Shown piece by piece: positions 5,842 through 26,134 of a DNA stretch of 28,867 nucleotides. The stretch lies in IMG/VR virus record IMGVR_UViG_2660238462_000003, one strand, 5' to 3'. The notes under the pieces were generated by a model that ran no database searches, was not told where the DNA came from, and saw nothing but the letters and a program-made list of their open reading frames with translations. The first letter of the stretch is position 1, and each line of letters starts with the position of its first letter. This DNA is from a virus. Taxonomy: Duplodnaviria; Heunggongvirae; Uroviricota; Caudoviricetes. Made by a program: the position numbers and the translations under genes.

Positions 5842-6882
5842 ATGGTTGATTTATATTCGCCTACTCAGCTTGTACAGGTGGTTAATGCTGTAGATGTACA
5901 AAAACAACTAAATGCGTTGTTTACCAGTTTGTTTTTTACTCGCTCGGTAATGTTTGAATCGCGCGATATTATTCTTGATACAATCGACGATCCAAATATC
6001 CCAATTGCAGCGTTTTGTTCTCCTATGGTGGGTAGTAAAGTTTCACGTGACGAAGGGTACGAATCAAAAACAATTCGTCCAGGCTATATGAAGCCGAAAA
6101 GCAGCATTGATCCAAATAAGTTAGCTGTGCGCCCTGCTGGTGTATCACCTGAGCAATACAATGCTTTTGGGGCACGTAATATTAAAGTTAAACAGGCGAT
6201 TGTAAATCAGGCTAAAGCTATTCGTGCACGTATTGAATGGCTTGCTGTTCAGGCAATCACAACGGGGAAAAATATCATTGAGGGCGATGGTATTGAACGT
6301 TATGAGCTGGACTGGAATATAAAACCACAAAATATCATCACTCAGTCTGGCGGTACTGAGTGGTCAGGTAAGGATAAAGAAACTTTTGATCCAAATGATG
6401 ATATTGAGAGCTACGCAGAATTTAGTGAGGGCGTCACTAATATCATCATTATGGGTGGTAATGTATGGAAGAAATACCGTTCATTCAGAGCGATAAAAGA
6501 GGCTTTGGATACCCGTCGTGGTTCTAATTCCGAACTGGAAACGGCCCTTAAAGACCTTGGTGATTCGGTGAGTTTTAAAGGGTATATGGGCGATGTTGCG
6601 ATTGTTGTTTACAGCGGGCGTTATACCGACGAGGACGGAACAGAAAAACATTTCCTTGATCCTGATTTGATGGTGCTTGGCAATACGGCTCTTCAGGGGA
6701 TTGTCGCCTATGGCGGTATTCAGGATCCGGAGCTAATCCGAATGGGGCTGACTAAAGCCGAACTTGCACCGAAAAACTATATTGTGCCTGGTGATCCGGC
6801 TATTGAATATGTGCAGACACATTCAGCACCACAGCCAATACCGGCCCGCATCAATCGTTTTGTTACCGTTCGCATTGGCTAA
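5842..6882 (+). CDS. Major capsid protein, lambda gpE family
   Basis: Shared blocks with lambda gpE as recalled: NITQSGGTEWS, DTRRGSNSELETA, GDVAIVVYSG, MVLGNT, PGY.KPK; start chosen at ATG 5842 (SD GAGG 6 nt upstream; ORF opens at 5629); about 347 aa vs 341 for gpE. Confidence 0.85.
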   Translation: MVDLYSPTQLVQVVNAVDVQKQLNALFTSLFFTRSVMFESRDIILDTIDDPNIPIAAFCSPMVGSKVSRDEGYESKTIRPGYMKPKSSIDPNKLAVRPAGVSPEQYNAFGARNIKVKQAIVNQAKAIRARIEWLAVQAITTGKNIIEGDGIERYELDWNIKPQNIITQSGGTEWSGKDKETFDPNDDIESYAEFSEGVTNIIIMGGNVWKKYRSFRAIKEALDTRRGSNSELETALKDLGDSVSFKGYMGDVAIVVYSGRYTDEDGTEKHFLDPDLMVLGNTALQGIVAYGGIQDPELIRMGLTKAELAPKNYIVPGDPAIEYVQTHSAPQPIPARINRFVTVRIG

Positions 6883-6891
6883 GGGGGAGCA

Positions 6892-7233
6892 ATGGCTACT
6901 CATTACACTGAACTCATGGCTGGCACTGAAGCACTGGTGACTACGCTGGGGATATTTTCAGCTAATAAAGGGGTAATTCCTGCATTTACGCCACTGATGC
7001 AGGAAGATGCAACAGGTGCACTGGTGGTATGGGATGGTTCGAGCGTAGGTAAAGCGGTTTATGTTTCCGCTGTACAAATCGACACAGCGAAAAAAACACA
7101 GGCACAGGTTTATAAGACAGGTGTTTTAAATGTTGATGCTCTGAACTGGCCTGAGTCTGTAAAAGAACTGTCGGCAAAGGTTGCCGCGTTTGTTGGCTCA
7201 GGTATTTCTGTTCAGCCGCTGGCTCGTGTGTAA
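6892..7233 (+). CDS. Head decoration protein, lambda gpD family
   Basis: 113 aa; PAFTPLMQEDATGALVVWDGSSVGKAV and WPE...AFVGSGISV align with lambda gpD; strong SD AAGGGGGAG. Confidence 0.7.
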   Translation: MATHYTELMAGTEALVTTLGIFSANKGVIPAFTPLMQEDATGALVVWDGSSVGKAVYVSAVQIDTAKKTQAQVYKTGVLNVDALNWPESVKELSAKVAAFVGSGISVQPLARV

Positions 7234-7244
7234 AGGGGGATACA

Positions 7245-7628
7245 ATGCAGAATCATTACAATGACCTTAAGCCAATTGCCGAAATGATGTATCCGGATCC
7301 AGCAGTAGAGGAATTAAAGGCTATTGCTGACAAAATGCGTTTAAGTGAACGCCTTGTTGATATGAATCAGGTGATGGAACTTACTACCCTTAGCCGTCGC
7401 ACATTGCTAAACCTTGAGGCTAGTGGAGAGTTCCCGGAGCGTGTGCAGGTTACGGAAGGGCGTAAGGCCTGGTATTTAAGTGAAGTGATCGACTGGATAA
7501 ACAATATTCCTCGATCTTCTGAATATTGCCGCGTACCTGTCCCAAAAAAGCCAGATGCGGCGCTATGCCTCAAGATTGAGCGTGTACGTCGCAATGCACG
7601 GGATGGTCGCTATAAGTTGATTGGTTGA
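7245..7628 (+). CDS. AlpA-like winged-HTH DNA-binding protein (second copy) immediately upstream of cos
   Basis: 127 aa; MNQVMELTTLSRRTLLNLEASGEFPERVQV...AWYLSEVIDWI matches AlpA/Xis-like HTH; strong SD AAGGGGGA. Confidence 0.6.
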   Translation: MQNHYNDLKPIAEMMYPDPAVEELKAIADKMRLSERLVDMNQVMELTTLSRRTLLNLEASGEFPERVQVTEGRKAWYLSEVIDWINNIPRSSEYCRVPVPKKPDAALCLKIERVRRNARDGRYKLIG

Positions 7629-7650
7629 TGAAATTAGGGCCCGTTCTGGC

Positions 7651-7830
7651 TGGCGGGTCCTTTCCGGCGATCCGGTAGGCTACGGGGCGGCGACCTCGCG
7701 GGTTTTCGCTATTTATGAGCCTTTTTCGGGTGCTGGTGGTGGTTTTGTTGTTCGCTCTATCTCTATGAATAAAAAGGAAAAGATAAAGCCAATACACCAA
7801 CCTGAAACATTACTTAAGTGGGGATATTGA
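7651..7830 (+). other. Lambda-type cos site (cosQ - cosN - cosB)
   Basis: 7685-7696 GGGCGGCGACCT equals the lambda cohesive end; following CGCGGGTTTTCGCTATTTATGA matches the lambda left end; preceding GGGTCCTTTCCGGCGATCCGGTAGGCTACG closely matches the lambda right end (cosQ); downstream cosB region diverges. Confidence 0.8.
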
Positions 7831-8300
7831 TGAAATCGCACCTGATGAACAAAAAAAACATGGCGCAAAGCTGCCGTGTAAGTGCGACAGCGTTCGACAA
7901 GTGGGGAGTGACTCCCGTTGAACGTAAAGGCCGCGAGGCGTTTTATGATGTTGCCAGCGTAATAGACAATCGGGTTAGCAATGCAATTAACCAGATTACA
8001 GACGACAAAGGCGAGATTGATGATGATGAACTCCTACGAGTCAGGATCAGATTGCTGACAGCACAGGCAGAGGCGCAGGAGCTTAAAAACGAGCGCGAAC
8101 GCGGCGACGTTATTGATACAGCGTTTTGTATATACGTGCTTTCAAAATTGGCGAGTCAGATTTCTTCAATCATGGACAGCCTGCCGCTTGCCATGACAAG
8201 GAAGTTTCCCGACATGAAGCCGTCTATGCTGGATGGACTGAAAAAGAAGTTATCAGAGCCTGTAACGCATGCGCAAAACTTGACGAAAACATACCGCTGA
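7830..8300 (+). CDS. Terminase small subunit, lambda Nu1 family (in-frame part; C-terminal domain continues in -1 frame to 8371)
   Basis: RLLTAQAEAQELKNERERGDVIDTAFCIYVLSKLASQISSIMDSLPLAMTRKFPDMK aligns with lambda Nu1; SD GGGGA 5 nt before ATG 7830; -1 frame 8246-8371 encodes EVIRACNACAKLDENIPLMLSDYLMETAG matching the Nu1 C-terminus. Confidence 0.8.
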   Translation: MKSHLMNKKNMAQSCRVSATAFDKWGVTPVERKGREAFYDVASVIDNRVSNAINQITDDKGEIDDDELLRVRIRLLTAQAEAQELKNERERGDVIDTAFCIYVLSKLASQISSIMDSLPLAMTRKFPDMKPSMLDGLKKKLSEPVTHAQNLTKTYR

Positions 8301-8382
8301 TGCTGTCCGATTATCTGATGGAAACTGCCGGAAACGTACCGGATAAGTTGCAGCCGAATAAAGATAAGTAACGTAGTACGCT

Positions 8383-8664
8383 ATGACTGAATCCGAAATA
8401 CTGCGATTAATCCGCCGTGCTTGTGGAATCAGCAAGCAGCATGACGAACAGGCCACGCAGCCGGACAGCGTGACCGCAGATAATTATGTGCGTGTAGTGG
8501 CTGAGGTGATGCGCCGTGACGGTATTGAGCTTAACGGCGTGGATATGCGCAACATACGAACAAGAGTCCTTGAGTTGCTGGCATATCGTCGCCGTTCTCA
8601 ACAACGGAGGGAGAGCGCGAAAAATACTTACCAGTGGAAGAAGCCGGAACGATTGCGGCGGTAA
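8383..8664 (+). CDS. Hypothetical basic protein (93 aa)
   Basis: ORF directly after terS; Arg-rich C-terminus; weak SD; no recognisable family. Confidence 0.35.
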   Translation: MTESEILRLIRRACGISKQHDEQATQPDSVTADNYVRVVAEVMRRDGIELNGVDMRNIRTRVLELLAYRRRSQQRRESAKNTYQWKKPERLRR

Positions 8665-8679
8665 CTTGCTGATATTCCC

Positions 8680-9060
8680 GATAACGCAAAATTGCGCTGG
8701 CTGACTTGTTGCATTGCAAAAAGTTAAGCAGGAAGGCACGGCCTGTAAGATGGGATGCAGTAAGTAGTTCAAGGCTACCTTGTGCTGGCACGCACAGTTA
8801 AGCCGTCGGTGCTGGATATCCCCCACTGGGGGAAAAGCTGGCTACATCCCTCACATCTGAGGACTGATAACGCGACATTGCGCTGGCTGGCAAAGTGCAA
8901 AATTGCACGATGGCCTAACCCATTGATTATTTCGAAAACCTGCAATGCAGGAAATCGGGGAAGTAAGCCTAAGCTATTGATTGTTTCGAAAACCCCCATT
9001 GGGGGATGTCGGGAAAGTAAGACTAACCCATTGATTCTTCCACAATCCTCAATTTGAGGA
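8680..9060. repeat. Non-coding region of short palindromes and degenerate direct repeats
   Basis: Direct repeat gataacgc(a/g)a(a/c)attgcgctggctg at 8680 and 8866; palindromes cgcaaaattgcg, ttgcattgcaa, cccccactggggg, gtgcaaaattgcac, cctgcaatgcagg, cccccattggggg, cctcaatttgagg; three roughly 55-bp units each starting (c/t)cattgatt(n)tt(t/c)c. Confidence 0.5.
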
Positions 9061-9479
9061 GGCCGGAACGTCTACATAGCTGCATCGCCGTAATGATGAT
9101 TCAGCCCACCAGCCAAATCAGCACAGCAACGACAGAATAGCCCGACACAGAAAAACCACGAATATGGGGTTTTTGTTATGACATGGTCATGATGACCACT
9201 CATACAAAACAGGTAAAGCCCACCAGCCTGATTAAAGGTTAACCGGAAAAAAGCCAGGTATCCAATCTCGATATGGGGATCCCTATATCGACATTAACGC
9301 CCACTAAAACTGTGCATATATGCATAGAAAAAGCATCCACCAGCTTTATGACGGATGCCGCTCATCTTATAAATAATCGTGTATTGCAGTGTGTATTGCG
9401 ACTCCTTTAAACGATAGGTCTGAGCATTCGTAATGTACTGTTTTTAAATTTTATTTTTTCCTGTCTTTTCATAAAGGCG

Positions 9480-9707
9480 ATGTATGCCGCCACCATTGAG
9501 AGTGAGCTGGATACGCAGTCAGCGATGGATTTTATTCTGGGCGCGAACAGTCAGGAGCAGCGGGAAAGGCTGACCGGCTGGATTGGTGAAATTGCCGCGT
9601 ATTACGCCGCAGCGCCGGTCCGGCTGGGAGGCGCAAAAGTACCGCACCTGATGCCGGGGGACTCACTGAACCTGCAGACGGCTCAGGACACGGATAACGG
9701 CTACTCC
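9480..9707 (+). CDS. Hypothetical protein, 3' end lost in scaffold gap
   Basis: ORF MYAATIESELDTQSAMDFILG... running into the N-run; unrecognised. Confidence 0.25.
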
Positions 9708-9717
9708 NNNNNNNNNN
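9708..9717. other. Assembly/scaffold gap (10 N)
   Basis: Run of 10 n characters. Confidence 0.95.
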
Positions 9718-9921
9718 CGCAGCTTTACGCTTGTCTTCTCTTATTTTGAAGTACAGATTCGTCAGGTAAGTCAGAAAGCCCAGAACCAGACTTCCCAGCA
9801 CACCAATAGCAGCCCACTGTGATGGACTGACCTGATCAAGCCACTGTAAAAACCAGTAGCCAGCACTGCCTGCGGAGGTGCCGTAGGCAATGCCCGTTGT
9901 TAACTTGTCCATGGATTTCAT
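9718..9921 (-). CDS. Holin, phage 21 S21 (pinholin)-like; C-terminus truncated by gap
   Basis: [63 protein letters not shown]... matches S21/EssD-type holin; strong SD GGAGGTGAGG. Confidence 0.8.
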
Positions 9922-10294
9922 AGCCTCACCTCCGCAAATAACGGATGGTGTACACGGTTCGGAACGAAGAGGGAAAGGTATAGAAGTTACATTAGCGTAA
10001 GGCCTGAACATCTATTCAAAAAGAAAAACGCCAGCGATTATTCTGGCGTAGCTGAAAGCATCATAAAATTATCAAATACGAAAATTACAAAATCATTAAA
10101 ACGCATCACGTTACATCATGTGTTTTTCTAAAAAAATCTTGATGAATATTTGTGGGGAGGAACACCAAAATATCTTCTGAAAACACTTACAAAATATGAC
10201 GTATTTTCATAACCGCATATCTCAGCAACTTTCCCAACAGAATATAAATTGTAGCTTAATAACCTTTCCGCCATCACCATTCGCTCTTCAAGAA

Positions 10295-10680
10295 TTAATT
10301 TTCGTGGATCTCAACTGAGCGTGAGAAGCAGATTGTTTTACGAGCCAACCGCTTAATACGGGTGCGTAGCGTCAGATTATTACGCTCAATGCGTTGGGTG
10401 AATATTTTGCCGGTCAGATGCTTATTCTTCGGCACCTCCCGGCCATAGCTGCCCCAGTCATCGCTGGTCAGCATGCCGATATTGAAGGGTGTAAGCAGTG
10501 CCAGTAGCTCCCGGCACGTTTGATCGGTTCGGGGACCAAAAGTGTAGGCCAGTACACCGCCTGTTTTGGTGTTGTACGCGTACCAGAGTCAGTGTTGCCG
10601 GGCTTTACTGCCAACGTAGCTCCATTGCTCATCAAGCTCGCAGATAAGCGCCACATCAGCATGGGCAACAGGCGAAGAAG
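10295..10680 (-). pseudogene. insB: IS1 insB-like, internal TGA stop and short C-terminus
   Basis: Minus-strand translation LICELDEQWSYVGSKARQH*LWYAYN...MLTSDDWGSYGREVPK...RIERNNLTLRTRIKRLARKTICFSRSVEIHEN resembles InsB; stop falls where IS1 InsB has Trp. Confidence 0.6.
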
Positions 10681-10953
10681 TTATTCGCTTTGGCGCGAGT
10701 TTTTTAAAGTCCGGATGACGGTGTTAATACCAATTTTCAGTGTCCTGGCGGTATCGCGAACCCCGGCACCATTAAAGGCCATTTCAGTTATCCGCTCTTT
10801 CATACCCGGCTTACGTGCTTGATAAGTATAAGTGAGCTGAAACACACGGTGGCAGTCACGGCAGCGAAATCTGTCACGGCCTTTAGGGTTCTGACCATGG
10901 CGGTAAACCTGAGCTGACTGACAACGGGGACAATGAATATTAACTCTGGCCAT
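10681..10953 (-). CDS. insA: IS1 InsA-like zinc-finger/HTH protein
   Basis: 90 aa; CPRCQS...CRDCHRVFQ zinc finger and HTH GINTVIRTLKN typical of IS1 InsA (divergent from K-12 IS1). Confidence 0.8.
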   Translation of the reverse strand: MARVNIHCPRCQSAQVYRHGQNPKGRDRFRCRDCHRVFQLTYTYQARKPGMKERITEMAFNGAGVRDTARTLKIGINTVIRTLKNSRQSE

Positions 10954-11432
10954 GAGATAACCTCAAAAGCCCGTATTATACATCAGACTCAACTAATTAG
11001 AGGCATCACCATAGAACATATGTATGGCATATTATCCACCTGATATCATTGGGGTTACACCAGGTAAGTATAGGTGGGTAATCAATATTCGCCAGTTCAA
11101 CAATAAGGAAAATCTCATTGCATCACAACTATAAAAGCATGTGTTTAACTCGCAAAAAATCATTAAACTAATCTGTTATATTATAATAGCTGCGTGCAAT
11201 AATAATATTATATGCTCTTAATATTCGCTTGAAATATCTTTATATAAAAACAGATTGAATAAAATATTTTGGGGCTGGTATATTTACCAACATTAAATTG
11301 CATCTCAATATTTTCTTCAGCGTGAACAGGATTTTTATACAAACTGACACTATGGGTATCATAGTGTAGTTTTTACGATTGTAAATATCCTGCATGCAGG
11401 AACTCATCACTTTCAGATGATATCGCATACAG

Positions 11433-12392
11433 TTAATTCACCATCAGTCTTAAAGCCAGTTCTTCCGGATAGGGATCGAAGTAATTCTGTGTAAGCAAGT
11501 AATCATTAGGATACTCACCCAGATAATGCTTCAGCAGAGTCAACGGCGCAAGAAGAGGCAATGTGCCAGAACGATAGTTAAGTATAACCTCGCTCAACTC
11601 TTTACGCTGGCGTGTACTTAAGTAGTTACTAAAATACCCCTGTATATGCATCAGCACATTCGTGTGATTTTTACGTGATGCAGGTTTTATGAGAATCGCC
11701 ATCAGCTTATCACGATACACCTCAAAGAATGATTCAAGGTCCGCCCACTCGTGTATTGCAGCCACAAATGGTCCCATATCTTTATAGCCTGCCTGACTAT
11801 GCGCCAACAACTGAAGCTTATAACGACTATGAAAAGCTAATAACTCTCTTCTTGATAATTTCTCCTTGTAAAGGTGATTGAGCTCATGCAAAGCAAAAAC
11901 TCTTTCAACAAAATTCTCACGAAGCACTGGATCATGTAATCGCCCATCCTCTTCAACCGGTAGCCAAGAAAACTTTTCCATCAAAGTGCTCGTAAATAGT
12001 CCCACTCCATCTTTACGACCTCGATTACCATTTTCATCATAGACACGCACGCGCTCCATGCCACAGCTGGGAGATTTAGCACAAACCACAAACCCCGATA
12101 CATCCTTTAATTTGTCCATATAAGAACGACTAAACTCTGTCATTCTCTCTGTCACATCCTCATTCTGGTCGTGGCTGAAACACATCCGTATATTTCCTTG
12201 CGTCGAGCGCACAAGACGTAGAGCAGGACGCGGAACTGGCAGCCCTATAGCCATTTCCGGACATACTGGTCTGAATGTTACCCATTCCACTAATTTGTCC
12301 ATTAAAAAGTCAGCTCTTTTGTGACCACCATCAAAACGAACAGCAGAACCGGCCAAACAACCGCTGATTCCAATCACAGGTTTTTTTATCAT
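11433..12392 (-). CDS. DUF523/DUF1722 (YbgA-like) family protein
   Basis: 319 aa; strong SD GGGGGAGGA; N-terminal Cys-containing DUF523-like region plus C-terminal DUF1722-like region (from memory of family features). Confidence 0.55.
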   Translation of the reverse strand: MIKKPVIGISGCLAGSAVRFDGGHKRADFLMDKLVEWVTFRPVCPEMAIGLPVPRPALRLVRSTQGNIRMCFSHDQNEDVTERMTEFSRSYMDKLKDVSGFVVCAKSPSCGMERVRVYDENGNRGRKDGVGLFTSTLMEKFSWLPVEEDGRLHDPVLRENFVERVFALHELNHLYKEKLSRRELLAFHSRYKLQLLAHSQAGYKDMGPFVAAIHEWADLESFFEVYRDKLMAILIKPASRKNHTNVLMHIQGYFSNYLSTRQRKELSEVILNYRSGTLPLLAPLTLLKHYLGEYPNDYLLTQNYFDPYPEELALRLMVN

Positions 12393-12584
12393 ATCCTCCC
12401 CCTTGACTAATTCATTAACAGATAAACTGTGTAGTGCACGGAATAAATTGCCTTTCTGGCGTCATCACTGACAATTTTTCTGTTATGGACTATTCCTAAT
12501 ATAGTATAAAAGTTCTTTAAGTGATTGGTCGTAATCATCTATCTTTCATACTTACCCTCAACTATCAAAAGTACAGGATTTATT

Positions 12585-13109
12585 ATGAAGTTATGGCCTG
12601 TGTTGACTGGCATTGCACTCTCTTTCACTCTTATAGCATGTAAGGCCCCGACACCACCTAAAGGTGTGCAGCCGATTACAAATTTTGACGCCAACCGCTA
12701 TCTCGGAAAATGGTATGAAATAGCTCGCCTCGAGAACCGGTTCGAACGTGGTCTGGAACAGGTCAGCGCTACTTATGGAAAACGGAACGACGGAGGGATT
12801 CGTGTACTTAACCGTGGATACGATCCAACGAAAAATAAATGGAGCGAGAGCGAAGGTAAAGCATACTTTACTGGAGATACTAAAACTGCAGCGTTGAAGG
12901 TTTCGTTTTTTGGCCCCTTCTATGGTGGCTATAATGTAATCAAACTGGATGATGAGTATAAGTATGCTCTTGTCAGTGGTCCGAACAGAGAATACCTATG
13001 GATTCTGGCAAGGACCCCAACTATTCCAGATAAAGTAAAAGCAGACTATGTGCGAACCGCTCAAAAGCTGGGATTCAATGTCAATGAATTATTATGGGTT
13101 AAACAATAA
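12585..13109 (+). CDS. blc: Outer membrane lipoprotein Blc (bacterial lipocalin)
   Basis: Lipobox LIAC; NFDANRYLGKWYEIARLENRFERGLE...KVSFFGPFYGGYNVI...YLWILARTPTI closely matches E. coli Blc; SD AGGA 6 nt upstream. Confidence 0.85.
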   Translation: MKLWPVLTGIALSFTLIACKAPTPPKGVQPITNFDANRYLGKWYEIARLENRFERGLEQVSATYGKRNDGGIRVLNRGYDPTKNKWSESEGKAYFTGDTKTAALKVSFFGPFYGGYNVIKLDDEYKYALVSGPNREYLWILARTPTIPDKVKADYVRTAQKLGFNVNELLWVKQ

Positions 13110-13136
13110 AATCCCTACCCGAAATGATACTTATTA

Positions 13137-13265: not shown

Positions 13266-13643
13266 TTATTTCGAACAATCAGCATCCATCTCCAATCGGA
13301 GATCCAACACCATCAGCATGCCCTCCACTACGCCCTCAGCTTTCTGGAGCATCCTGCCAACCCAACAATCAGATCGCCCATGCTTACGTGCAAGCGCCAT
13401 AAAAGTCATGCCGCCGACATAATAGTCCACCAATAAATCATGCAAATCGCTGTTGTTTTTTTTCAGGCGAGCCATACATCCACAAATGATCATCGCGTCA
13501 TCGTCACAGCATTGCGGGCGAGATTTGACTTTTGAAGAAATTAACCCCTTAAAACCGGCAGCAATGGACGACCAGGTCACATCTTCATGATTATTAGCCG
13601 CCCACGCTCCCCAACGCTCAAGAACCATCTGAATATCACGCAT
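13266..13643 (-). CDS. quuD: Late-gene antiterminator Q (DLP12 QuuD-like)
   Basis: [31 protein letters not shown]...[16 protein letters not shown] matches QuuD/Q82-family; ORF opens at 13658 but start chosen at 13643. Confidence 0.8.
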
Positions 13644-13728
13644 CAACTTACTCCACAAAAATCAGACCAGAACGCCAATTACAAGCAAAAATCAACAAAA
13701 CAGTATTAGTTGATTGTTATCTCTGACT

Positions 13729-14515: not shown

Positions 14516-14678
14516 GATTCCTCCTTGCTGCCAGTCGCAACCATTTTTTATCAACCAGGCTGGCGGTATATCCGAGCAGTGTTGGTATTTCGGAAGGCTT
14601 CAGCTCCGGTTTACGCTTACGACGATCTGGTACTCTGTAGATGTGTCCGTTCATGACACGAATAAGCGGTGTAGCCAT
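14508..14678 (-). CDS. ninE: NinE-family protein (56 aa)
   Basis: Minus-strand [59 protein letters not shown]; start overlaps ybcN stop (TAATG); under ORF-track size cut-off. Confidence 0.5.
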   Translation of the reverse strand: MATPLIRVMNGHIYRVPDRRKRKPELKPSEIPTLLGYTASLVDKKWLRLAARRNHG

Positions 14679-15133
14679 TACGCCTCCTGCTTGTCGCGGA
14701 GCAGCTGGAACTCGCAGCTCTGCGGAATAGTCAGGTGGCAGCCAATATTCACCGCCCAGGCTTCAACCTTACACAGGAAGACATACATCTCTCCGGTATC
14801 AAGATCGGAGGTATGGCGTAACGACTGGATAGTGGTGATATCACCGGTTACGACATCAACCAGGTCTTTGGTTTCATAACCGAGATATGTGTGTTTGAGA
14901 GCATCTTTTACCCAAGCTGGAGTGGCGAACGTTTTACCCTTGCTGATGAGGTATTCACTGATTTCGCTGTACCACATGTGGCTGAGTGCATTCTGGGAAA
15001 GACTGCGTCTCTCGCGCCACGGTTTAAGCACCATGCGAAAGCATTTGCCGTCCTCCAGATAAGGCTGGATCTGCCGACCGATAGCGGTGAAGTTACCGCG
15101 ATGCAATTTGATACCATCTTGTGGGAGGTTCAC
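14678..15133 (-). CDS. ybcN: YbcN-like nin-region protein
   Basis: 151 aa ORF resembling DLP12 YbcN; position upstream of ninE-ybcO-rusA. Confidence 0.75.
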
Positions 15134-15408
15134 GCTTCACCTCCGCAGAGGTCAAACGTTGGATGCAAGATATCGCAGGTGCATTTCTGCATCTGTGACT
15201 GGTTGAAAGGTGTTCTGATTGTCGTTTGCACTTTGAGTCCCCTCAAAGCGCAGAAGTCACCGGAGTTGTTCAGGCTCCGATGACATGATTATGGCGAGTT
15301 GATTATGATGAATCAATAGGTTCTTATGTCAAATGAACACTAGATCCAAAGGAGGGTAACAATTATCATAGCCAATGAGATTAATCTCATTTTTAATAAG
15401 GAAATTTC

Positions 15409-16827
15409 ATGAAATATTTCTCAACTGGTTTTTATGTTTCAAACTCCACATCTCTAGCTGAGATCTTTAATGAATGTTTTTCTTGGGTAAACGACTCACC
15501 ACATACAACTTTTATTCCAGCACAATTAGTATGTGATTATAAAAGCGAGGAGTACTTCATAGAGTCTAAAAATGAAAGAATTGATATAATAACTTATAAA
15601 AACAAAGATACTAGTTTAGGCTGTTTTAGGTATTCGAAAATATCTGAGCCACACAAATGGGTAACAGATATTTCAATTAATAAAAATCTCAAAACTGATA
15701 CCATGTGGATTCAGGTGGAATCTAGCGTTGTAAGCCAAGATGCAGCTTATCTAGCCCCGCAACCTAAGAAACCATTAGTTGTTATGAGATTGATTGATAA
15801 ATTTTCTGGTGGTCTTGATGATATTTTCAAGGTGTCAGTCGAACCTCATTCCTTAGATGATACTGATGAACATTTAAATATAGCAGCTAAAGTTATAAAT
15901 GGTGAAACTGACAACAGACTACCAATAATATACGTTAGCTCCAAGTATTTTTTTAATGAACATGCTCACAATATCATCCCAGAACGCCTTGCAAGAAAGG
16001 TATGCGGATTAGCACATGTATTAATTGAGCCTAGCAATAGACTATTTTCTATTAAGCTAAAAAATGAGACAAATGCTAAAAATGCCTATGCTGGTGCTGT
16101 TGGTATCTATTGGCCACGGGGTCAAAATATCAGTTTTTATCGCCGTGGTGAGAAAACCGCAAAAGAATTTGAAGATGAGTTATTTGATGATGTTGTAAGA
16201 GCTACGACTACAATGGCTCCTGTCTCAGATAGTGGATGGAGTGAGATACAAACCAGAAAAACGAAAGACTCTATTAACTCACTCAAAGAAAGAGGAGAAT
16301 ACACACGCGAACTGATGGCGCTTTACGAAGCCGATAATGTTGCGAAAGATGACCAAATAGAAGATCTTAAGCATAAGATCTCCTCTTTAGAGCACAGAGT
16401 ACGCACTCTTCAATCACAAGCTTCAGCCCAAGGAAGCATTGTGCTTAATGCTGGTGAAGAGACTGATTTTTTTGATGGAGAAATCAAAAATATAATTATT
16501 GACGCACTAAAAACTGCCATAAAAAATAAAAATGAATTTGGTAGAAGCTACCATATCTTATCATCCCTAATTGCCAATAATGAATACAATAAAGAAACCG
16601 AGAGTCGCCGCCAATTACTTAAAAGGACTTTAACAGGTTACAGAAGCATGGATAGCGCAACACAAAGAAATTTAAAGGACTTAGGTTTCAGTGCGTCAAG
16701 CGATGGAAAACACTGGAAGTTAACATATAATGAAGACCCTCGATATTCCTATATTTTACCTAAAACAGGAAGTGACCACAGAGGTTCTTTAAATGCTATC
16801 TCGGATATAGCAAACATTATTTTCTAA
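15409..16827 (+). CDS. Hypothetical 472-aa protein, AT-rich moron between nin region and ren
   Basis: Long ORF with SD AAGGAAA; much lower GC than flanking genes; central coiled-coil-like segment (EDLKHKISSLEHRVRTLQSQ); no recognised motif. Confidence 0.55.
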   Translation: MKYFSTGFYVSNSTSLAEIFNECFSWVNDSPHTTFIPAQLVCDYKSEEYFIESKNERIDIITYKNKDTSLGCFRYSKISEPHKWVTDISINKNLKTDTMWIQVESSVVSQDAAYLAPQPKKPLVVMRLIDKFSGGLDDIFKVSVEPHSLDDTDEHLNIAAKVINGETDNRLPIIYVSSKYFFNEHAHNIIPERLARKVCGLAHVLIEPSNRLFSIKLKNETNAKNAYAGAVGIYWPRGQNISFYRRGEKTAKEFEDELFDDVVRATTTMAPVSDSGWSEIQTRKTKDSINSLKERGEYTRELMALYEADNVAKDDQIEDLKHKISSLEHRVRTLQSQASAQGSIVLNAGEETDFFDGEIKNIIIDALKTAIKNKNEFGRSYHILSSLIANNEYNKETESRRQLLKRTLTGYRSMDSATQRNLKDLGFSASSDGKHWKLTYNEDPRYSYILPKTGSDHRGSLNAISDIANIIF

Positions 16828-16835
16828 TAAATTTC

Positions 16836-16861
16836 AATAGCACTCACAAATGAGTGCTATT
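16836..16861. terminator. Hairpin between convergent moron genes
   Basis: aatagcactca-caaa-tgagtgctatt perfect 11-bp stem. Confidence 0.4.
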
Positions 16862-16878
16862 GTTGCCACTGAATTACT

Positions 16879-17133
16879 CTATTTAAATTCAACTTTTATC
16901 CCTTTGTTTAGCAGGGCATCAGAAACTGCCTTTTTTGTAACATTTATCCCTGCAAGCAATGCTTTATGCATTGGTCCCTTAAAAATTTCTACTTCTTCTT
17001 CAGTGAGTTTAGGCAATGTAATATAAATAACATCTTTCATCTGCTTGTTTTTATAGCATGAGCTTCTTGTGTGCTTACAATCGATATTTTCTTTATTTCC
17101 CAAAACATCATCCCCTTTATAATTCAGTTCCAC
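16879..17133 (-). CDS. Hypothetical small protein (up to 84 aa; non-ATG start likely, or 53 aa from internal ATG), AT-rich
   Basis: ORF convergent with the 472-aa gene; first codon at 17133 is GTG; weak SD. Confidence 0.3.
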   Translation of the reverse strand: MELNYKGDDVLGNKENIDCKHTRSSCYKNKQMKDVIYITLPKLTEEEVEIFKGPMHKALLAGINVTKKAVSDALLNKGIKVEFK

Positions 17134-17197
17134 ACATCAATTATTTAGTTATCACGAATGTCGTAAAACTAAAATTAGTAACAATAATTGCTCATAC

Positions 17198-17485
17198 CTA
17201 CTCTCTTCCATATAAAGCCAACACCCGCTTCATCGCGGCACTTTGACGACACTCCTTAAAAATCAGATTCGTGCTCACCTTTCCTTCCCGTTCTTCTCTG
17301 GTAGCGAACCGGTAATACACCGTTCGCCAGACCTTACCATCAACGACCAGGATTCCTGACCGCGCCATTTTAGCCGCAGCCTGATTTATGCTGGTTACGG
17401 TTGCGCCTGTTACCGCGGCAACGTCCTGCGCACAGAAGTTCTTATGAGTCCCCAGGTAATGAATAATTGCCTCTTTGCCCGTCAT
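17198..17485 (-). CDS. ren: Ren protein
   Basis: MTGKEAIIHYLGTH...VTSINQAAAKMAR...GKVWRTVYYRFATREEREGK... matches lambda Ren as recalled; immediately downstream of P. Confidence 0.8.
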   Translation of the reverse strand: MTGKEAIIHYLGTHKNFCAQDVAAVTGATVTSINQAAAKMARSGILVVDGKVWRTVYYRFATREEREGKVSTNLIFKECRQSAAMKRVLALYGRE

Positions 17486-18183
17486 ACACTTGCTCCTTTC
17501 AGCCCAAACTTCGCTTTGATTTCTGCGATCTTCGCCAGAGCCTGAACACGATTAAGCGGTCTCCCGCCCATGACAGGAAGTTGTTTTACTGGTTCAGGTA
17601 TCGCCTCACCACGGTTAATTCGCGCTGTCATACAGGCCAGTTCATCGGCAGCCTTGCGCCGTAATTCCGCATCAGTCAGCGCATTGGCCCGCATGTTCTG
17701 ATACAGGTTGGTAACCAGCCAGTAGTGCGCGTTTGATTTCCACGGATAAGACTCTGCATCTGGATACAGGCCACGTTTCCGGCAATACTCGTAAACCATA
17801 TCAACCAGCTCGCTGGCGTTTGGCAGCCCGGCGGTAACGGATGCTTCTTCCCGGCACCAGGCAACAAACTGCCCGGGTGATGGCAGGAATGGTCGATTCT
17901 GCCGACGGGCTACGCGCATTCCTGCGTTAACCTGTTCCATCGTGGTGATCCCGTTTTCCCGGAAAGCCAGAACCCACTGGCGGCGGATTTCGTTCAGTTC
18001 GTTCTGGTCCCGGTTAGCCAGGCTCGCCGGGAAAGTTGCCAGTAACTGGCTGAACACACCATTGATGATCTGCGCTACCTGTTGTACCTGCGGCTTTTCG
18101 TCGTACTGTTCCGGCATGTTGTTGGCGATCCGGCGCATCTGCTCACGGTCAAAGTTAACCATCTGTGCGGCGATGTTTTTCAT
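17482..18183 (-). CDS. P: Replication protein P (DnaB loader)
   Basis: 233 aa essentially identical to lambda P as recalled (MKNIAAQMVNFDREQMRRIANNMPEQYDEKPQVQQVAQIINGVF...). Confidence 0.9.
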   Translation of the reverse strand: MKNIAAQMVNFDREQMRRIANNMPEQYDEKPQVQQVAQIINGVFSQLLATFPASLANRDQNELNEIRRQWVLAFRENGITTMEQVNAGMRVARRQNRPFLPSPGQFVAWCREEASVTAGLPNASELVDMVYEYCRKRGLYPDAESYPWKSNAHYWLVTNLYQNMRANALTDAELRRKAADELACMTARINRGEAIPEPVKQLPVMGGRPLNRVQALAKIAEIKAKFGLKGASV

Positions 18184-19109
18184 AAATCCACCCCGTAAAT
18201 CCAGTCAGTGTTTGTCAGGTCGAGTTTTGATTTTCCGGCTATCACGCCAGCCTGTTGCTTGTTACGGTTGATTTCGAGTTGGGTCCACTTGTCGCGGAGT
18301 TTGGCCGGACTTAGCACGTTACCGGACCAGAAGTTGTCCTGGCATGCCCAGCGGAACAGCACGCACATGTCGCGGTGGTTACGGCCGTCACGTTCACGCA
18401 TCAGGCGGATATCGTTAGCCCACCCTGCAAAATTCGGTTTTCTGGCTGATGGCGCGATGGTCTTCACCATGTCAAACATCCACTCTGCGGCGGTCAGGTC
18501 TTCTGCTGTCCCCCACCTGCTGCCGCTCTGAATTGCAGCATCTGGTTTCTCCACAGGAAGATCGTTTTCTGGTTGGTCAGAGGATTCGCCAGAATTCTCG
18601 GACGAAAAAGGTTTTATATTGTCTTTTGTTAGTTTGTATTTTGTGTTTACCTGATTCGGGTAAGTGCCTTTACCTGATTTGGGTAAACTTTTCTTACCTG
18701 ATTCAGGTAAATTTACCTCTTTCAGGTAAACTTTATTTTTCTTACCTGATTCGGGTAATGTTGACCATTCACTGACCACATTATTAATGCCGATATTCCG
18801 CCCGCTCTGAATAAAAATCCCACGCTTTACCAGAACACTTTTTGCAGCAGAACACTTGTGCGGCAATATCCCGGTCAACTCGGAAAGTTGCTCGTTGCTC
18901 ACCCAATCCAGTTTTTTATTAAAGCCATATGTTTTGCGCATGACAGCCAGGAAGACCAGAAGCTGGTGCTGTGTTAATCCGGCCAGCATCACAGCTTCCA
19001 GCAACTCATTTGCAATGCGCGTATAACCATCATCGAGATCTGCCACGCGCGGCTCCTTTTGTGCCGCATCCGGCACTGGAAAATTGAATATCTCAGCAGT
19101 GTTTGCCAT
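18180..19109 (-). CDS. O: Replication initiator O (lambda-like C-terminal domain, different N-terminal DNA-binding domain)
   Basis: C-terminal ...YSSENSGESSDQPENDL...GTAEDLTAAEWMFDMVKTIAPSARKPNFAGWANDIRLMRERDGRNHRDMCVLFRWACQDNFWSGNVLSPAKLRDKWTQLEINRNKQQAG... matches lambda O; start at 19109 (SD GGGAGGA) rather than 19199. Confidence 0.85.
   Translation of the reverse strand: MANTAEIFNFPVPDAAQKEPRVADLDDGYTRIANELLEAVMLAGLTQHQLLVFLAVMRKTYGFNKKLDWVSNEQLSELTGILPHKCSAAKSVLVKRGIFIQSGRNIGINNVVSEWSTLPESGKKNKVYLKEVNLPESGKKSLPKSGKGTYPNQVNTKYKLTKDNIKPFSSENSGESSDQPENDLPVEKPDAAIQSGSRWGTAEDLTAAEWMFDMVKTIAPSARKPNFAGWANDIRLMRERDGRNHRDMCVLFRWACQDNFWSGNVLSPAKLRDKWTQLEINRNKQQAGVIAGKSKLDLTNTDWIYGVDL
18647..18758. 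repeat. ori iterons inside O gene
   Basis: Five 17-bp iterons TTACCTGATTCGGGTAA (variants at 18647, 18670, 18695, 18714, 18742) with an AT-rich stretch alongside. Confidence 0.75.
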
Positions 19110-19195
19110 AATTCCTCCCGCAATGAGTGTGTTACGATTTGCACCTGAAAGTCGGTTCTGTTCCCGCAGACCGACTTTCGCCATTTCTGAACCTG

Positions 19196-19735
19196 TCATA
19201 TTGCCCCCAGCATGGTGGTCACCATCGCCATTAATGGACCAGCCAGATCCGGGTCCACACGAAACATCGACACAATACCTTCACTCATTTCCTTCAGTTT
19301 CTGGTGGCGTGGTGCGTTGAGAATGACAGCCTGTTTTGCCTCACTGAGTTCCTTTTCCATTTCAGCCAACCGAGTCATGAAGCTATCCTGCTCAACCAGG
19401 TAACCGCGATATTCCAGCGGTAGTACCGCCAGAATTGCCGGGGTCAGTTCACGCACGTTATTTCGGTATTTTTCAGAATCGAATTTGTTATCGAGGAAGC
19501 GGAACAGCTTCTGGCGTGCACGGCTGACATCATCAGGGAAATCGATGGTGCCGTCGCCCTGCTCCCGATACTCATTCACAATGAGTGCGGCAACGACATC
19601 CTGATTATCTACAGCCGACCAGGCGCGGACGGCATCACGGATTTTTTCGTGGCCTGGAGCTTGTTTTGTTTGAGAACGATTTATCACCGCAGTCGGAATA
19701 AATCCGCTAGTCTGTTGGTATGTAAGTGGTTGCAT
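19196..19735 (-). CDS. YdaT-like protein in the cII position
   Basis: 179 aa; SD AAGGAG; segment PAILAVLPLEYRGYLVEQDSFMTRLAEMEKEL resembles YdaT-family proteins (recalled, uncertain). Confidence 0.45.
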   Translation of the reverse strand: MQPLTYQQTSGFIPTAVINRSQTKQAPGHEKIRDAVRAWSAVDNQDVVAALIVNEYREQGDGTIDFPDDVSRARQKLFRFLDNKFDSEKYRNNVRELTPAILAVLPLEYRGYLVEQDSFMTRLAEMEKELSEAKQAVILNAPRHQKLKEMSEGIVSMFRVDPDLAGPLMAMVTTMLGAI

Positions 19736-19804: not shown

Positions 19805-20035
19805 TTAAGCTGCGTTCTTTTCGGTGTGTGGAAACAACTTCGGAAGATCCGGGCGAATCTGGTATGCCTTCACAACTCCACCAGTAGCCGTAACAATGCT
19901 GCCGACATGTTCAGGGGATACCTTTGCTTTGTTGTGAAGCCACTTATAGACGGCCTGCTGTGAAACTTCGCAGGCATCGCCTAGTTTCTTTTGTGAACCA
20001 ACGATATTGATCGCTGTTTTGATTGCTGGGTTCAT
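19805..20035 (-). CDS. Cro-like HTH regulator
   Basis: 76 aa; HTH GSQKKLGDACEVSQQAVYKW; divergent from cI across operator region; SD GGAGG. Confidence 0.65.
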   Translation of the reverse strand: MNPAIKTAINIVGSQKKLGDACEVSQQAVYKWLHNKAKVSPEHVGSIVTATGGVVKAYQIRPDLPKLFPHTEKNAA

Positions 20036-20139: not shown

Positions 20140-20829
20140 ATGAAAACAACACTCTCAGAAAGACTTAAAGAAGCCAGATTAGCGCGAGGCCTTACACAAA
20201 AGGCGCTTGGGGATTTGGTCGGGGTTAGCCAGGCTGCTATTCAGAAAATCGAAACAGGGAAAGCTAACCAAACAACTAAAATCGTGGAGATCGCGAACGC
20301 TTTGGGTGTGCGCGCAGAATGGTTATCTTCTGGCGTTGGAAATATGTCAGACAGTACAGTGCAACCAATACAATCAACTGTCAGCCATTCCAAATACTTC
20401 AAAATTGACGTTCTTGATATAGAAGTCAGTGCCGGGCCAGGTGTAATCAACCGTGAGTTTGTAGAAGTTCTACGCTCGGTTGAGTACTCGTTTGACGATG
20501 CTCGTCACATGTTCGATGGCAGGAAGGCGGAAAATATCCGCATCATTAACGTGCGAGGTGACAGCATGTCAGGGACGATCGAACCAGGTGACCTGCTGTT
20601 CGTTGATATCACTGTTAAATCTTTCGACGGTGATGGCATCTATGCGTTTCTGTACGACGACACTGCCCATGTAAAACGTCTTCAAATGATGAAGGATAAG
20701 CTGCTGGTTATCTCTGATAACAAGAGCTACTCGCCGTGGGACCCGATCGAGAAAGACGAGATGAACCGGGTGTTCATATTCGGTAAGGTCATTGGAAGCA
20801 TGCCGCAGACGTACAGGAAGCATGGTTAA
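20140..20829 (+). CDS. cI: CI-type repressor (XRE HTH + S24 LexA-like peptidase domain)
   Basis: N-terminal HTH LTQKALGDLVGVSQAAIQKIE; C-terminal ...RGDSMSGTIEPGDLLFVD...KRL with Ser/Lys dyad typical of S24 autoproteolysis. Confidence 0.85.
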   Translation: MKTTLSERLKEARLARGLTQKALGDLVGVSQAAIQKIETGKANQTTKIVEIANALGVRAEWLSSGVGNMSDSTVQPIQSTVSHSKYFKIDVLDIEVSAGPGVINREFVEVLRSVEYSFDDARHMFDGRKAENIRIINVRGDSMSGTIEPGDLLFVDITVKSFDGDGIYAFLYDDTAHVKRLQMMKDKLLVISDNKSYSPWDPIEKDEMNRVFIFGKVIGSMPQTYRKHG

Positions 20830-24922: not shown

Positions 24923-25132
24923 GCGAAATTAACTAGAAGCCAAAGATAAAATCATCGCTGAGCAGGAGAAAATCGCTAACGGAGAAAAGACAGTAAGTCA
25001 GTATATGAAAACCGCATGATATCATCAGATAAAAATCGGTCGTAAAGCGAAATATTAATACCAGAACAAACGAGTCGAGGTAAATTATATTACCTCGATA
25101 AATTAACTAAAACTTGCCCGCTATATACTATA

Positions 25133-25735
25133 TCATTCAGTATCATCACGCGCGGTCTGTGCATATGTCACTACCGCACCTAATATATTAATTTTCTTTT
25201 CAACATAGATAATATTATCGTACTCATAATTGCCATACGGATAGCAAATGCGAATATTCTCATGTAGATCGGGGTCATCCACCTCAGCTCCAGAACAACT
25301 TTTTGAACTACCGGAAGTATACCGATACGGTGCAACGTAAGACGATGTCTCTCCAGGCAAAAAATAAGTTAGTGTCGTAAGGGGTATAATCAGAAAAAAT
25401 CCAGCAAATATGCACATCCCTGCATAAACCTTAAGGTATGCTGACAGACTCTTCCAGCCGCTTTGTTTTACTATCCCCTTCTTAACCCAAAACAGAGATA
25501 ACAGAAAAGCTATTCCCATGCTAAACAGAATGTAATAGTGGGATATACTCTGATTAAGAAACGTGACCCTGTAGATATCTGCCCGCCACCAGAAGAAAAG
25601 GAAAATAAAGATCAGCCCTGAAACTGTCATGCAAATCAAATAAGGATACGAATCTTTTTTCATGTTTAGCGCCCATAAAATTTTTCCTGACCCGGACAAA
25701 TTTACCATCCATTTTTTGCGCAGAAAATAGCTCAT
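25133..25735 (-). CDS. Hypothetical membrane protein, AT-rich moron (start uncertain)
   Basis: Three hydrophobic helices (LICMTVSGLIFIFLFFWW, ILFSMGIAFLLSLFWV, AGMCIFAGFFLIIPLTTLTYF) then Cys/Tyr-rich C-terminal domain; low GC; no convincing SD at any of three candidate ATGs. Confidence 0.45.
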   Translation of the reverse strand: MSYFLRKKWMVNLSGSGKILWALNMKKDSYPYLICMTVSGLIFIFLFFWWRADIYRVTFLNQSISHYYILFSMGIAFLLSLFWVKKGIVKQSGWKSLSAYLKVYAGMCIFAGFFLIIPLTTLTYFLPGETSSYVAPYRYTSGSSKSCSGAEVDDPDLHENIRICYPYGNYEYDNIIYVEKKINILGAVVTYAQTARDDTE

Positions 25736-26134
25736 TACTTACTGCACAATAATACACAAAATTGCGTAAATTTTTTGCATGGATTTTAGCTCTTTCAGCC
25801 GACATTTAAGGGGTAAATAGCATTTCCTAAAAGCAACTGCACCAACCCAACAGAATGGGCTACCGCTTACGTTGAGAGCAAAAAAGTGTATAGCAGCAAT
25901 GAACAGCATCCTCGCACTGACGAGGATTTCTTTTATCTGAACTCGCTACGGCGAGTTTTTTTATGGAGATGATAAATGCACTTCCGAGTCACAGGTGAAT
26001 AGAATGGAGAACCATTCAACAGAGTTATCGAAGCCGAGAACATCAGCGACTGCTATGACCACTGGATGCTGTGGGCGCAGATAGCACATGCAGACGTAAC
26101 CAATATTCGAATTGAAGAACTGAAAGAACACCAA

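Follow-up and report, generated by a model that had tools for sequence, protein, structure and literature searches.

What is the function of the AT-rich cassette that separates ren from the nin genes in the prophage of IMG/VR record IMGVR_UViG_2660238462_000003 (Caudoviricetes)? The stretch analysed here, 28,867 nucleotides long and referred to as the window, belongs to an E. coli chromosome and carries a lambdoid prophage of the DLP12 type, with its early-right operon on the minus strand. An original prediction, made from the letters alone, had described positions 15134-17197 as a two-gene moron, consisting of a 472-amino-acid open reading frame (ORF472) and a small convergent one (ORF84), and had named the larger gene a candidate for an uncharacterised defence function. 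Both reading frames lie exactly at the coordinates claimed (Table 1). According to our analysis, ORF472 is very probably an allele of the validated anti-phage defence gene DS-10 and thus itself a defence gene.

In RefSeq, ORF472 is deposited as a 'hypothetical protein' (WP_042028685.1). It is 99% identical to DS-10 (WP_087897267.1), with 395 of 399 residues matching without gaps in a comparison that covers the residues printed in Table S8 of DeWeirdt, Mahoney & Laub (DefensePredictor, Science 2026, PMC13092281), the last 73 residues lying outside it. Both proteins are 472 amino acids long, both are single-gene systems with the same HicA-like segment (residues 416-471), and they are four substitutions apart (T62N, V124I, S133P and I215T), none of which falls in a conserved column. 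The defence phenotype itself is taken from the literature and was obtained for this 99%-identical allele. DS-10, with the working id 'ZAPB', is a single coding sequence (CDS) from E. coli that was scored 'defensive TRUE' (Table S6) and 'replicated TRUE' (Table S8). In the rows of Table S7 listed for it, phage Bas1 dropped from 3e6 to 30 plaque-forming units (PFU), a -log efficiency of plating (EOP) of 5, while Lambda lost 0.74 log and formed small plaques, and for Bas3 small plaques were the only effect. The sole mention of the system in the main text is as 'a HicA mRNA interferase' among the newly validated defence domains. HHpred placed HicA (6HPB_C) at residues 416-471 with a probability of 0.91, and HHblits homology to known defence proteins was recorded as FALSE; the N-terminal domains, the genomic slot and the mechanism lay outside the analysis of that study (PMC13092281). 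Our literature search on WP_042028685 and on later work on DS-10 or the related HEC-07 (see below) found nothing further.

The match to DS-10 bears out the guess of a phage-defence role for the 472-amino-acid gene. The epithet 'uncharacterised' does not hold, as the defence gene was already published in 2026. As a discovery, ORF472 adds little, being an allele of a published system; the defence call, made blind from the raw letters, amounts to its independent rediscovery. We see the lasting value of the locus in the homology of DS-10 to the defence protein HEC-07 with its swap of the toxin domain, in the size of an unannotated protein family, and in the ren-nin cargo slot.

In order to resolve the architecture of the protein, an AlphaFold2 (AF2) model was built from 39 homologs, with a predicted local distance difference test (pLDDT) score of 83.8. 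The model divides the chain into an N-terminal beta-rich domain, a thioredoxin-like domain without CxxC, a coiled coil, a three-helix linker and a C-terminal HicA-like domain (Table 1). The N-terminal domain, proposed here as a sensor module, gave weak Foldseek matches of START/Bet v1/CoxG type only (E 0.016-0.2), and the full model matched nothing in the PDB at E <= 0.001. When 139 sequences with 23-46% identity to ORF472 were aligned, just five residues proved invariant in 139/139, namely D137, P172, E358, R379 and H435. H203, E207, G426, F427, D443, R445, D456 and R458 are nearly invariant. The thioredoxin-like domain thereby carries two of the invariant residues (D137 and P172) as well as the nearly invariant G200, A202, H203, E207 and P208, and no known catalytic motif was found in it. 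The three-helix linker holds E358 and R379 and is a candidate for an intramolecular inhibitor of, or a scaffold for, the RNase domain. We consider H435, E358, R379, D137 and H203 the residues of mechanistic interest in DS-10.

The central coiled coil, which had been read from the sequence, reappears in the model as two long helices. The accompanying statement that the protein has no recognisable motif stands for single-sequence scans of Pfam and NCBIfam, and fails for PADLOC, profile-profile and fold comparisons, in which domains were found. Matches of ORF472 to tropomyosin, taxilin and GCN4 peptides in Pfam, NCBIfam and PDB sequence searches were discarded as coiled-coil noise at residues 280-340, that is, as artefacts of composition. 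The remote-homology and structure predictions that had been proposed as a check yielded the thioredoxin-like and HicA-like domains and the HEC-07 homology.

The assignment of the C-terminus as HicA-like, and not RelE-like, is based on several lines that are individually modest, agree with each other and are joined by the published HHpred result. The C-terminal domain of ORF472 itself does not match Pfam HicA_toxin (PF07927) at E up to 10, so that the family threshold is not reached. HicA_toxin is, though, the top family in 6 of 24 relatives (best E 0.0048), and the HicA-like model of PADLOC is matched by 6 of 39 family members (best E 2.6e-5). An hhalign comparison with E. coli K-12 HicA (probability 69%, E 4.4e-5) places H435 on the histidine of 'GSNH', phrog_2053 of the PHROGs (unknown function) aligns with residues 411-467 at E 9e-8, and the fold comparison is likewise consistent with the HicA fold, which resembles a double-stranded-RNA-binding domain (dsRBD). 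With the HicA toxins (PF07927; PDB 6HPB, 5YRZ, 6G26 and 1WHZ) the domain shares the fold of about 55 residues in the order alpha-beta-beta-beta-alpha, the 'G-x-H-x-K-L' strand and the position of the catalytic histidine. It differs from them in that it forms the last 12% of a 472-residue chain and matches below the Pfam thresholds. Because H435 is invariant at the position of the HicA catalytic residue, it may be argued from the alignment that the active site is retained. No HicB antitoxin was found next to ORF472; ORF84 has no family match, and the neighbours of the homologs differ by context.

Fused HicA proteins have been classified before, and in the sections of Gerdes (2024; mBio, PMC10865869) that deal with them, classes 11-13 are HicA-HicB fusions and class 14 is 'SMC'-HicA. 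These proteins share with ORF472 a monocistronic gene and a C-terminal HicA that is preceded by a globular domain and by sequence rich in coiled coil. Class 14 (example WP_223300692.1) is described as SMC-like and in part carries NERD domains; the coiled coil of ORF472 might conceivably be read as SMC-like too. A role in defence was proposed for such fused architectures in the same sections (PMC10865869).

HEC-07 is a validated single-gene anti-phage defence that was tested with WP_033943166.1 of P. aeruginosa, and its chain is described as joining an AdoMetDC-like domain to a thioredoxin-like domain that lacks CxxC and to a RelE-like RNase in which a histidine is conserved (Payne et al., bioRxiv 10.1101/2024.01.29.577857). 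It is represented in PADLOC by the models PDLC04158-04161. A PADLOC scan of ORF472 returned one real match, to HEC-07 (E 1e-9, residues 83-334), and the HEC-07 model was matched by 39/39 DS-10 family members (best E 1.9e-14); the ORF472 match spans positions 107-366 of the 553 in the profile (47%), which is too little for membership. When the DS-10 family profile was aligned by hhalign with the tested HEC-07, represented by its first 399 residues as given in Table S2 of Payne et al., residues 82-321 of DS-10 aligned with residues 102-351 of HEC-07 (probability 95.3%, E 2e-8, 227 columns, about 19% identity). BLASTP of ORF472 against HEC-07 gave 25% identity over 151 amino acids (E 2e-4). The motifs 'G-x-AHV' and 'EL-x-x-LYE-x-DN' are common to both proteins, the start of the ORF472 coiled coil, 'ELMALYEADN', being aligned with 'ELLGLYEQDN' of HEC-07. 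Judging from these alignments, the N-terminal two-thirds of DS-10 are remotely homologous to HEC-07; the shared span takes in the last part of the N-terminal domain, continues through the thioredoxin-like domain, which lacks CxxC in both, and reaches into the beginning of the coiled coil. Of the N-terminal domain just the last ~30 residues align, and no spermine synthase or AdoMetDC appears among the top Foldseek matches listed for the ORF472 domain, all of which are weak (E 0.016 or worse). As HHblits had linked DS-10 to no known defence protein in the study of DeWeirdt et al., its relation to HEC-07 appears not to have been noted before.

At the C-terminus, both proteins carry a small RNase fold of the toxin type that includes a conserved histidine, predicted in the case of DS-10. 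The folds are different, however: the C-terminus of HEC-07 is RelE-like (HP0892-type) with its histidine near the very end, whereas that of DS-10 is HicA-like with its histidine in the second strand. HEC-07 is also about 80 residues longer. We posit that DS-10 and HEC-07 may be two branches of one widespread, single-chain 'sensor plus RNase' superfamily, in which a shared sensing chassis of beta-domain, thioredoxin-like domain and coiled coil is combined with exchanged toxin domains, and in which intramolecular inhibition, possibly via the linker with E358 and R379, has replaced the role of HicB or RelB. We regard the chances for and against this proposal as evenly balanced. If true, it would describe a general route from type II toxins to antitoxin-free defence effectors, and a common chassis with interchangeable RNase domains would offer a handle on how toxins work in immunity without antitoxins.

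The comparison with HEC-07 also bears on the possibility that the HicA-like domain is a non-catalytic, dsRBD-type RNA-binding sensor and that the effector lies elsewhere, for example in the D137/H203/E207 cluster of the thioredoxin-like domain or in a recruited host factor. The HicA fold is dsRBD-like according to the fold descriptions in Gerdes (2024; PMC10865869), the similarity scores to HicA are modest, conservation apart from the C-terminus peaks in the thioredoxin-like domain, and part of it, the 'AHV' motif, recurs in HEC-07 despite its different C-terminus. Yet the residue aligned with the HicA catalytic histidine is invariant across 139 diverged sequences, and the thioredoxin-like domain is without any known catalytic motif. 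Moreover, the corresponding position in HEC-07 is taken by a RelE-like RNase fold with its own conserved histidine, and a different RNase fold at this place argues for a swappable effector and not for a sensor. A purely RNA-binding C-terminus therefore seems quite improbable to us.

We infer for ORF472 a mechanism that involves RNase activity, auto-inhibition, a trigger and abortive infection. ORF472 is stand-alone cargo in the ren-nin slot, with a promoter-like sequence and a likely terminator hairpin of its own. In the uninfected cell, the HicA-like domain would be held inactive within its own chain, because there is no antitoxin gene. A phage-derived cue might then be sensed by the module of N-terminal and thioredoxin-like domains that is common to HEC-07, upon which the RNase would be released or assembled through the coiled coil. 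It could cleave RNA independently of the ribosome, in the manner of HicA toxins, so that translation stops and the phage yields no progeny, probably by abortive infection. To the explanation as a whole, that is, a DS-10 allele carried as cargo and acting as a sensor-RNase, we assign a probability of roughly 0.6.

Several points weigh against this explanation. A dsRBD fold of the HicA type can simply bind RNA. Auto-inhibition and an abortive outcome enter the model by analogy, and the expression of ORF472 from the prophage rests on a predicted promoter whose best match sits in backbone sequence and not in the insert. The identity of ORF472 and DS-10 over the last 73 residues is deduced from equal length and from the same HHpred domain coordinates. 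Among the Table S7 rows listed, strong protection by DS-10 is seen for Bas1 alone, and several other systems also strongly reduce Bas1; the study contains no DS-10 mutants or mechanism experiment, and the system is missing from its mutagenesis figure (PMC13092281).

The same data may be read as direct immunity, in which the same RNase would act on phage transcripts alone, destroying them, or would interrupt a step of the phage, leaving the infected cell alive. The plaque counts listed in PMC13092281 would by themselves fit either outcome, and the narrow protection, strong for Bas1 and limited to plaque size for Lambda and Bas3, would suit a selective action. However, free HicA toxins cleave cellular mRNAs and transfer-messenger RNA (tmRNA) and arrest growth, as is established for the HicAB system (introduction of Gerdes 2024; PMC10865869), and no element that could confer target specificity is evident in ORF472. 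We consider direct immunity unlikely.

Beyond the window, the DS-10 family is large and mobile. When 1.84 billion representatives were scanned in full with HMMER, 3,496 clusters at 50% identity were recovered (E <= 1e-3), of which 1,039 remain at E <= 1e-30. Nearly all of the best 150 clusters are about 460-480 amino acids long and match end to end, with a few that are shorter or N-terminally extended. A family of thousands of clusters without a Pfam family implies that many genomes carry an unannotated defence gene. A word-based search found relatives in Enterobacterales, Pseudomonas and Caulobacter. The exact ORF472 protein sequence is present on 450 contigs, and the cassette is rare within E. 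coli, being found in 24 of 5,426 complete genomes.

The homologs reside in different kinds of elements. A 77%-identical homolog of E. coli and Salmonella (P0004; L003-L007) adjoins an integrase at the edge of a DUF927 island, which occupies two chromosomal sites, near dsbD-cutA-dcuA-aspA and near speC-nupG-mltC. The Dickeya homolog lies inside an integrative and conjugative element (ICE), among transfer genes. In Pseudomonas, the homolog (P0050; L009-L012) has a HipA_C kinase gene on one side and the tail end of a P2-like prophage on the other. At 25% identity, P0075 (L013-L016, metagenome contigs) is the most distant of the homologs examined and belongs to a conserved block with radical-SAM, HSP70-like and AAA+/trypsin proteins, a transglutaminase-core protein and two SLFN_AlbA_2/HATPase_c_4 (Schlafen-like ATPase) proteins, a block that looks like an uncharacterised defence island. 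In these other elements the homologs are lone genes, and a hairpin follows the stop codon in L003, L005 and L008. The family travels as a single gene, occurring in prophages and integrase islands as well as in an ICE and a defence island, just as one would expect of a defence gene that is mobile and self-sufficient. On the Pseudomonas contigs, at about 6114-7839, the HipA_C kinase gene and a 235-amino-acid ORF of no assigned function lie directly upstream, at the tail-fibre end; they may represent a HipA-based defence pair like DS-6/HipAD.

The distribution also bears on the status of ORF84. Were ORF84 a functional partner (an antitoxin, a regulator or a trigger adaptor), the two genes would form a toxin-antitoxin-like pair. 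They are strictly co-inherited, ORF84 being found in the same 24 of 5,426 E. coli genomes at 95-100% identity, both are AT-rich, and an in-frame 12-nucleotide indel between ORF84 alleles keeps the 84-residue frame. The indel lies upstream of the alternative start that gives 53 residues, though, and is thus little informative, as are the three synonymous and two non-synonymous codon changes that separate ORF84 from the 95%-identical VCSW7 allele. DS-10 protects as a single CDS, and no ORF84 accompanies the homologs that were examined in other elements (77%, 62%, 40% and 25% identity). Among 5.8 billion proteins only four clusters of near-identical copies were found, the named ones from E. coli. 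Neither Pfam, NCBIfam, PADLOC nor PHROGs gave a match, nor did tblastn against phages, and no Shine-Dalgarno sequence was detected at GTG 17133 or at ATG 17040. Convergent reading frames with a hairpin between them do not form an operon. We therefore hold a two-gene system to be very unlikely, and the description of the cassette as a two-gene moron is not sustained, ORF84 being missing beside every examined homolog outside the E. coli cassette. The status of ORF84 as a gene is doubtful, and it is probably a non-functional or accessory passenger outside the DS-10 unit. The label 'phospholipase D-like domain-containing protein', given to it in one RefSeq genome, had no support in the hidden Markov model (HMM) libraries and was rejected.

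The AT-rich foreign island between ren and the nin genes was correctly recognised in the original prediction. Its G+C content is 0.31-0.39 over ~15200-17200, the minimum of the window at 1-kb resolution, as compared with 0.50-0.56 in both flanks, and the slot is empty or otherwise filled elsewhere. The island is 100% identical to that of E. coli strain EFF60. Its limits required revision, since of the interval 15134-17197 the leftmost ~190 nucleotides (15134-~15326) are lambdoid backbone, with 82-87% identity to phage 82, HK639 and >2,500 E. coli genomes; in phage 82, a promoter and a 'possible regulator-binding site' are annotated in this region. On the right, similarity with other ren-bearing prophages restarts 10-26 nucleotides inside ren. 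The insert accordingly spans ~15327-17210 (right edge 17206-17222), roughly 1.9 kb, between ren and ylcH-ybcN. When the flanks were searched for direct repeats left by an insertion, only short matches attributable to chance were obtained, and Rfam matched nothing on 14900-17600 at E up to 1. The cassette had further been thought to replace ninB-ninI; ybcN, ninE, ybcO, rusA, ylcG and Q directly follow, and the insert is an addition. The ylcH/orf33-like mini-ORF is annotated in RefSeq as a truncated pseudogene in EFF60 and as intact in strain MB20.

Other lambdoid prophages use the same slot differently. In the prophage of strain N1 it is empty, with ren directly abutting ninB; in O157:H7 strain 86-24 it is filled by emrE and ybcK, in ESDR8 by Lar, DUF7301 and phiTE_015 genes, and in phage HK639 by five other genes (57-61). 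In lambdoid prophages the ren-to-nin junction accepts variable cargo, and this can include a defence gene. The other cargo shares the position downstream of ren, is varied in content and consists of genes unrelated to ORF472, which is transcribed in opposition to the phage operon. ORF472 shows the traits of a prophage moron: a foreign G+C content, the opposite strand, a predicted promoter-like site, a terminator hairpin and absence from similar prophages.

The strong hairpin that had been said to separate the two reading frames is indeed perfect in its stem, with z = -4.5 and 0/200 shuffles folding equally well. The pattern of an intrinsic terminator is satisfied on the minus strand only, and the hairpin is likely a terminator. 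The promoter candidate for ORF472 shares part of its sequence with the backbone promoter from which the ylcH-ybcN genes are read divergently. The palindrome upstream of the gene (Table 1) was considered as a conserved operator and dismissed, as it is not kept upstream of homologs in other elements; a regulatory role for it is speculative.

These signals matter for the question of whether the copy in the window is a silent passenger of a defective prophage, neither expressed nor functional. The late region of the prophage was lost to insertion sequence (IS) elements, four residues differ from the tested DS-10, and the ORF472 promoter is a consensus match only. Against this, ORF472 is intact, the identical protein occurs on 450 contigs, all four changes from DS-10 lie outside conserved columns, and the codon differences to the VCSW7 allele are 13 synonymous and four non-synonymous. 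A silent copy is very improbable in our view.

Table 1. Coordinates of ORF472, its predicted domains and signals, and the neighbouring prophage genes in the window.
Feature	Position	Strand	Remarks
Q	13266-13658	-	
ninE, ybcO, rusA, ylcG			after ybcN and, with Q, completing a nin-type block
ybcN	14678-15133	-	weak NinB match
Prophage backbone	15130-15326	-	ylcH/orf33-like small ORF (15130-15231) and promoter/regulator-site region
Promoter candidate for ORF472	15280..15309	+	sigma-70-like, ATGACA-18-TATGAT; consensus scan, 10/12 matches
Palindrome	15374..15391		perfect, 18 bp, AATGAGATT and AATCTCATT; 6 nt upstream of the ORF472 ribosome-binding site
ORF472	15409..16827	+	ATG, 472 aa; ribosome-binding site AAGGAA at 15397-15402
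N-terminal beta-rich domain	15409..15738	+	residues 1-110; AF2, pLDDT about 85-92
Thioredoxin-like domain without CxxC	15766..16218	+	residues ~120-270
Central coiled coil	16237..16419	+	residues 277-337; AF2 helices 277-294 and 300-337
Three-helix linker domain	16441..16638	+	residues 345-410; invariant E358, R379
C-terminal HicA-like domain	16654..16824	+	residues 416-472; alpha-beta-beta-beta-alpha, AF2 fold
Invariant H435 codon	16711-16713	+	
Hairpin between the convergent ORFs	16835..16862		perfect 12-bp stem, 4-nt loop, -17 kcal/mol
ORF84	16879..17133	-	GTG, 84 aa; alternative ATG at 17040 (53 aa), used in some records
ren	17198-17485	-	
P	17482-18183	-	Pfam Phage_lambda_P, E 9.5e-62
O	18180-19199	-	
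YdaT-domain protein	19196-19735	-	
cro-like gene	19805-20035	-	
cI-like repressor gene	20140-20829	+	

The remainder of the prophage yielded some further observations. At the cII position (19196-19735, minus strand), a 179-amino-acid 'toxin YdaT domain-containing' protein is encoded instead of a lambda-type CII. The late genes downstream of Q are gone, and the late region has been lost to IS elements. The segment ~8300-13110 contains a lipocalin gene (12525-13109, plus strand), a YbgA-family gene with a G+C content of 0.37 (11433-12392, minus strand), copies of IS5 and IS3, and fragments of envY and of a protease. The prophage is a defective DLP12-type remnant that carries a second foreign cargo block. 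A further kilobase of low G+C content (0.386) is found at 25000-26000, near the integrase end of the prophage, and holds a 200-amino-acid ORF (25133-25735, minus strand).

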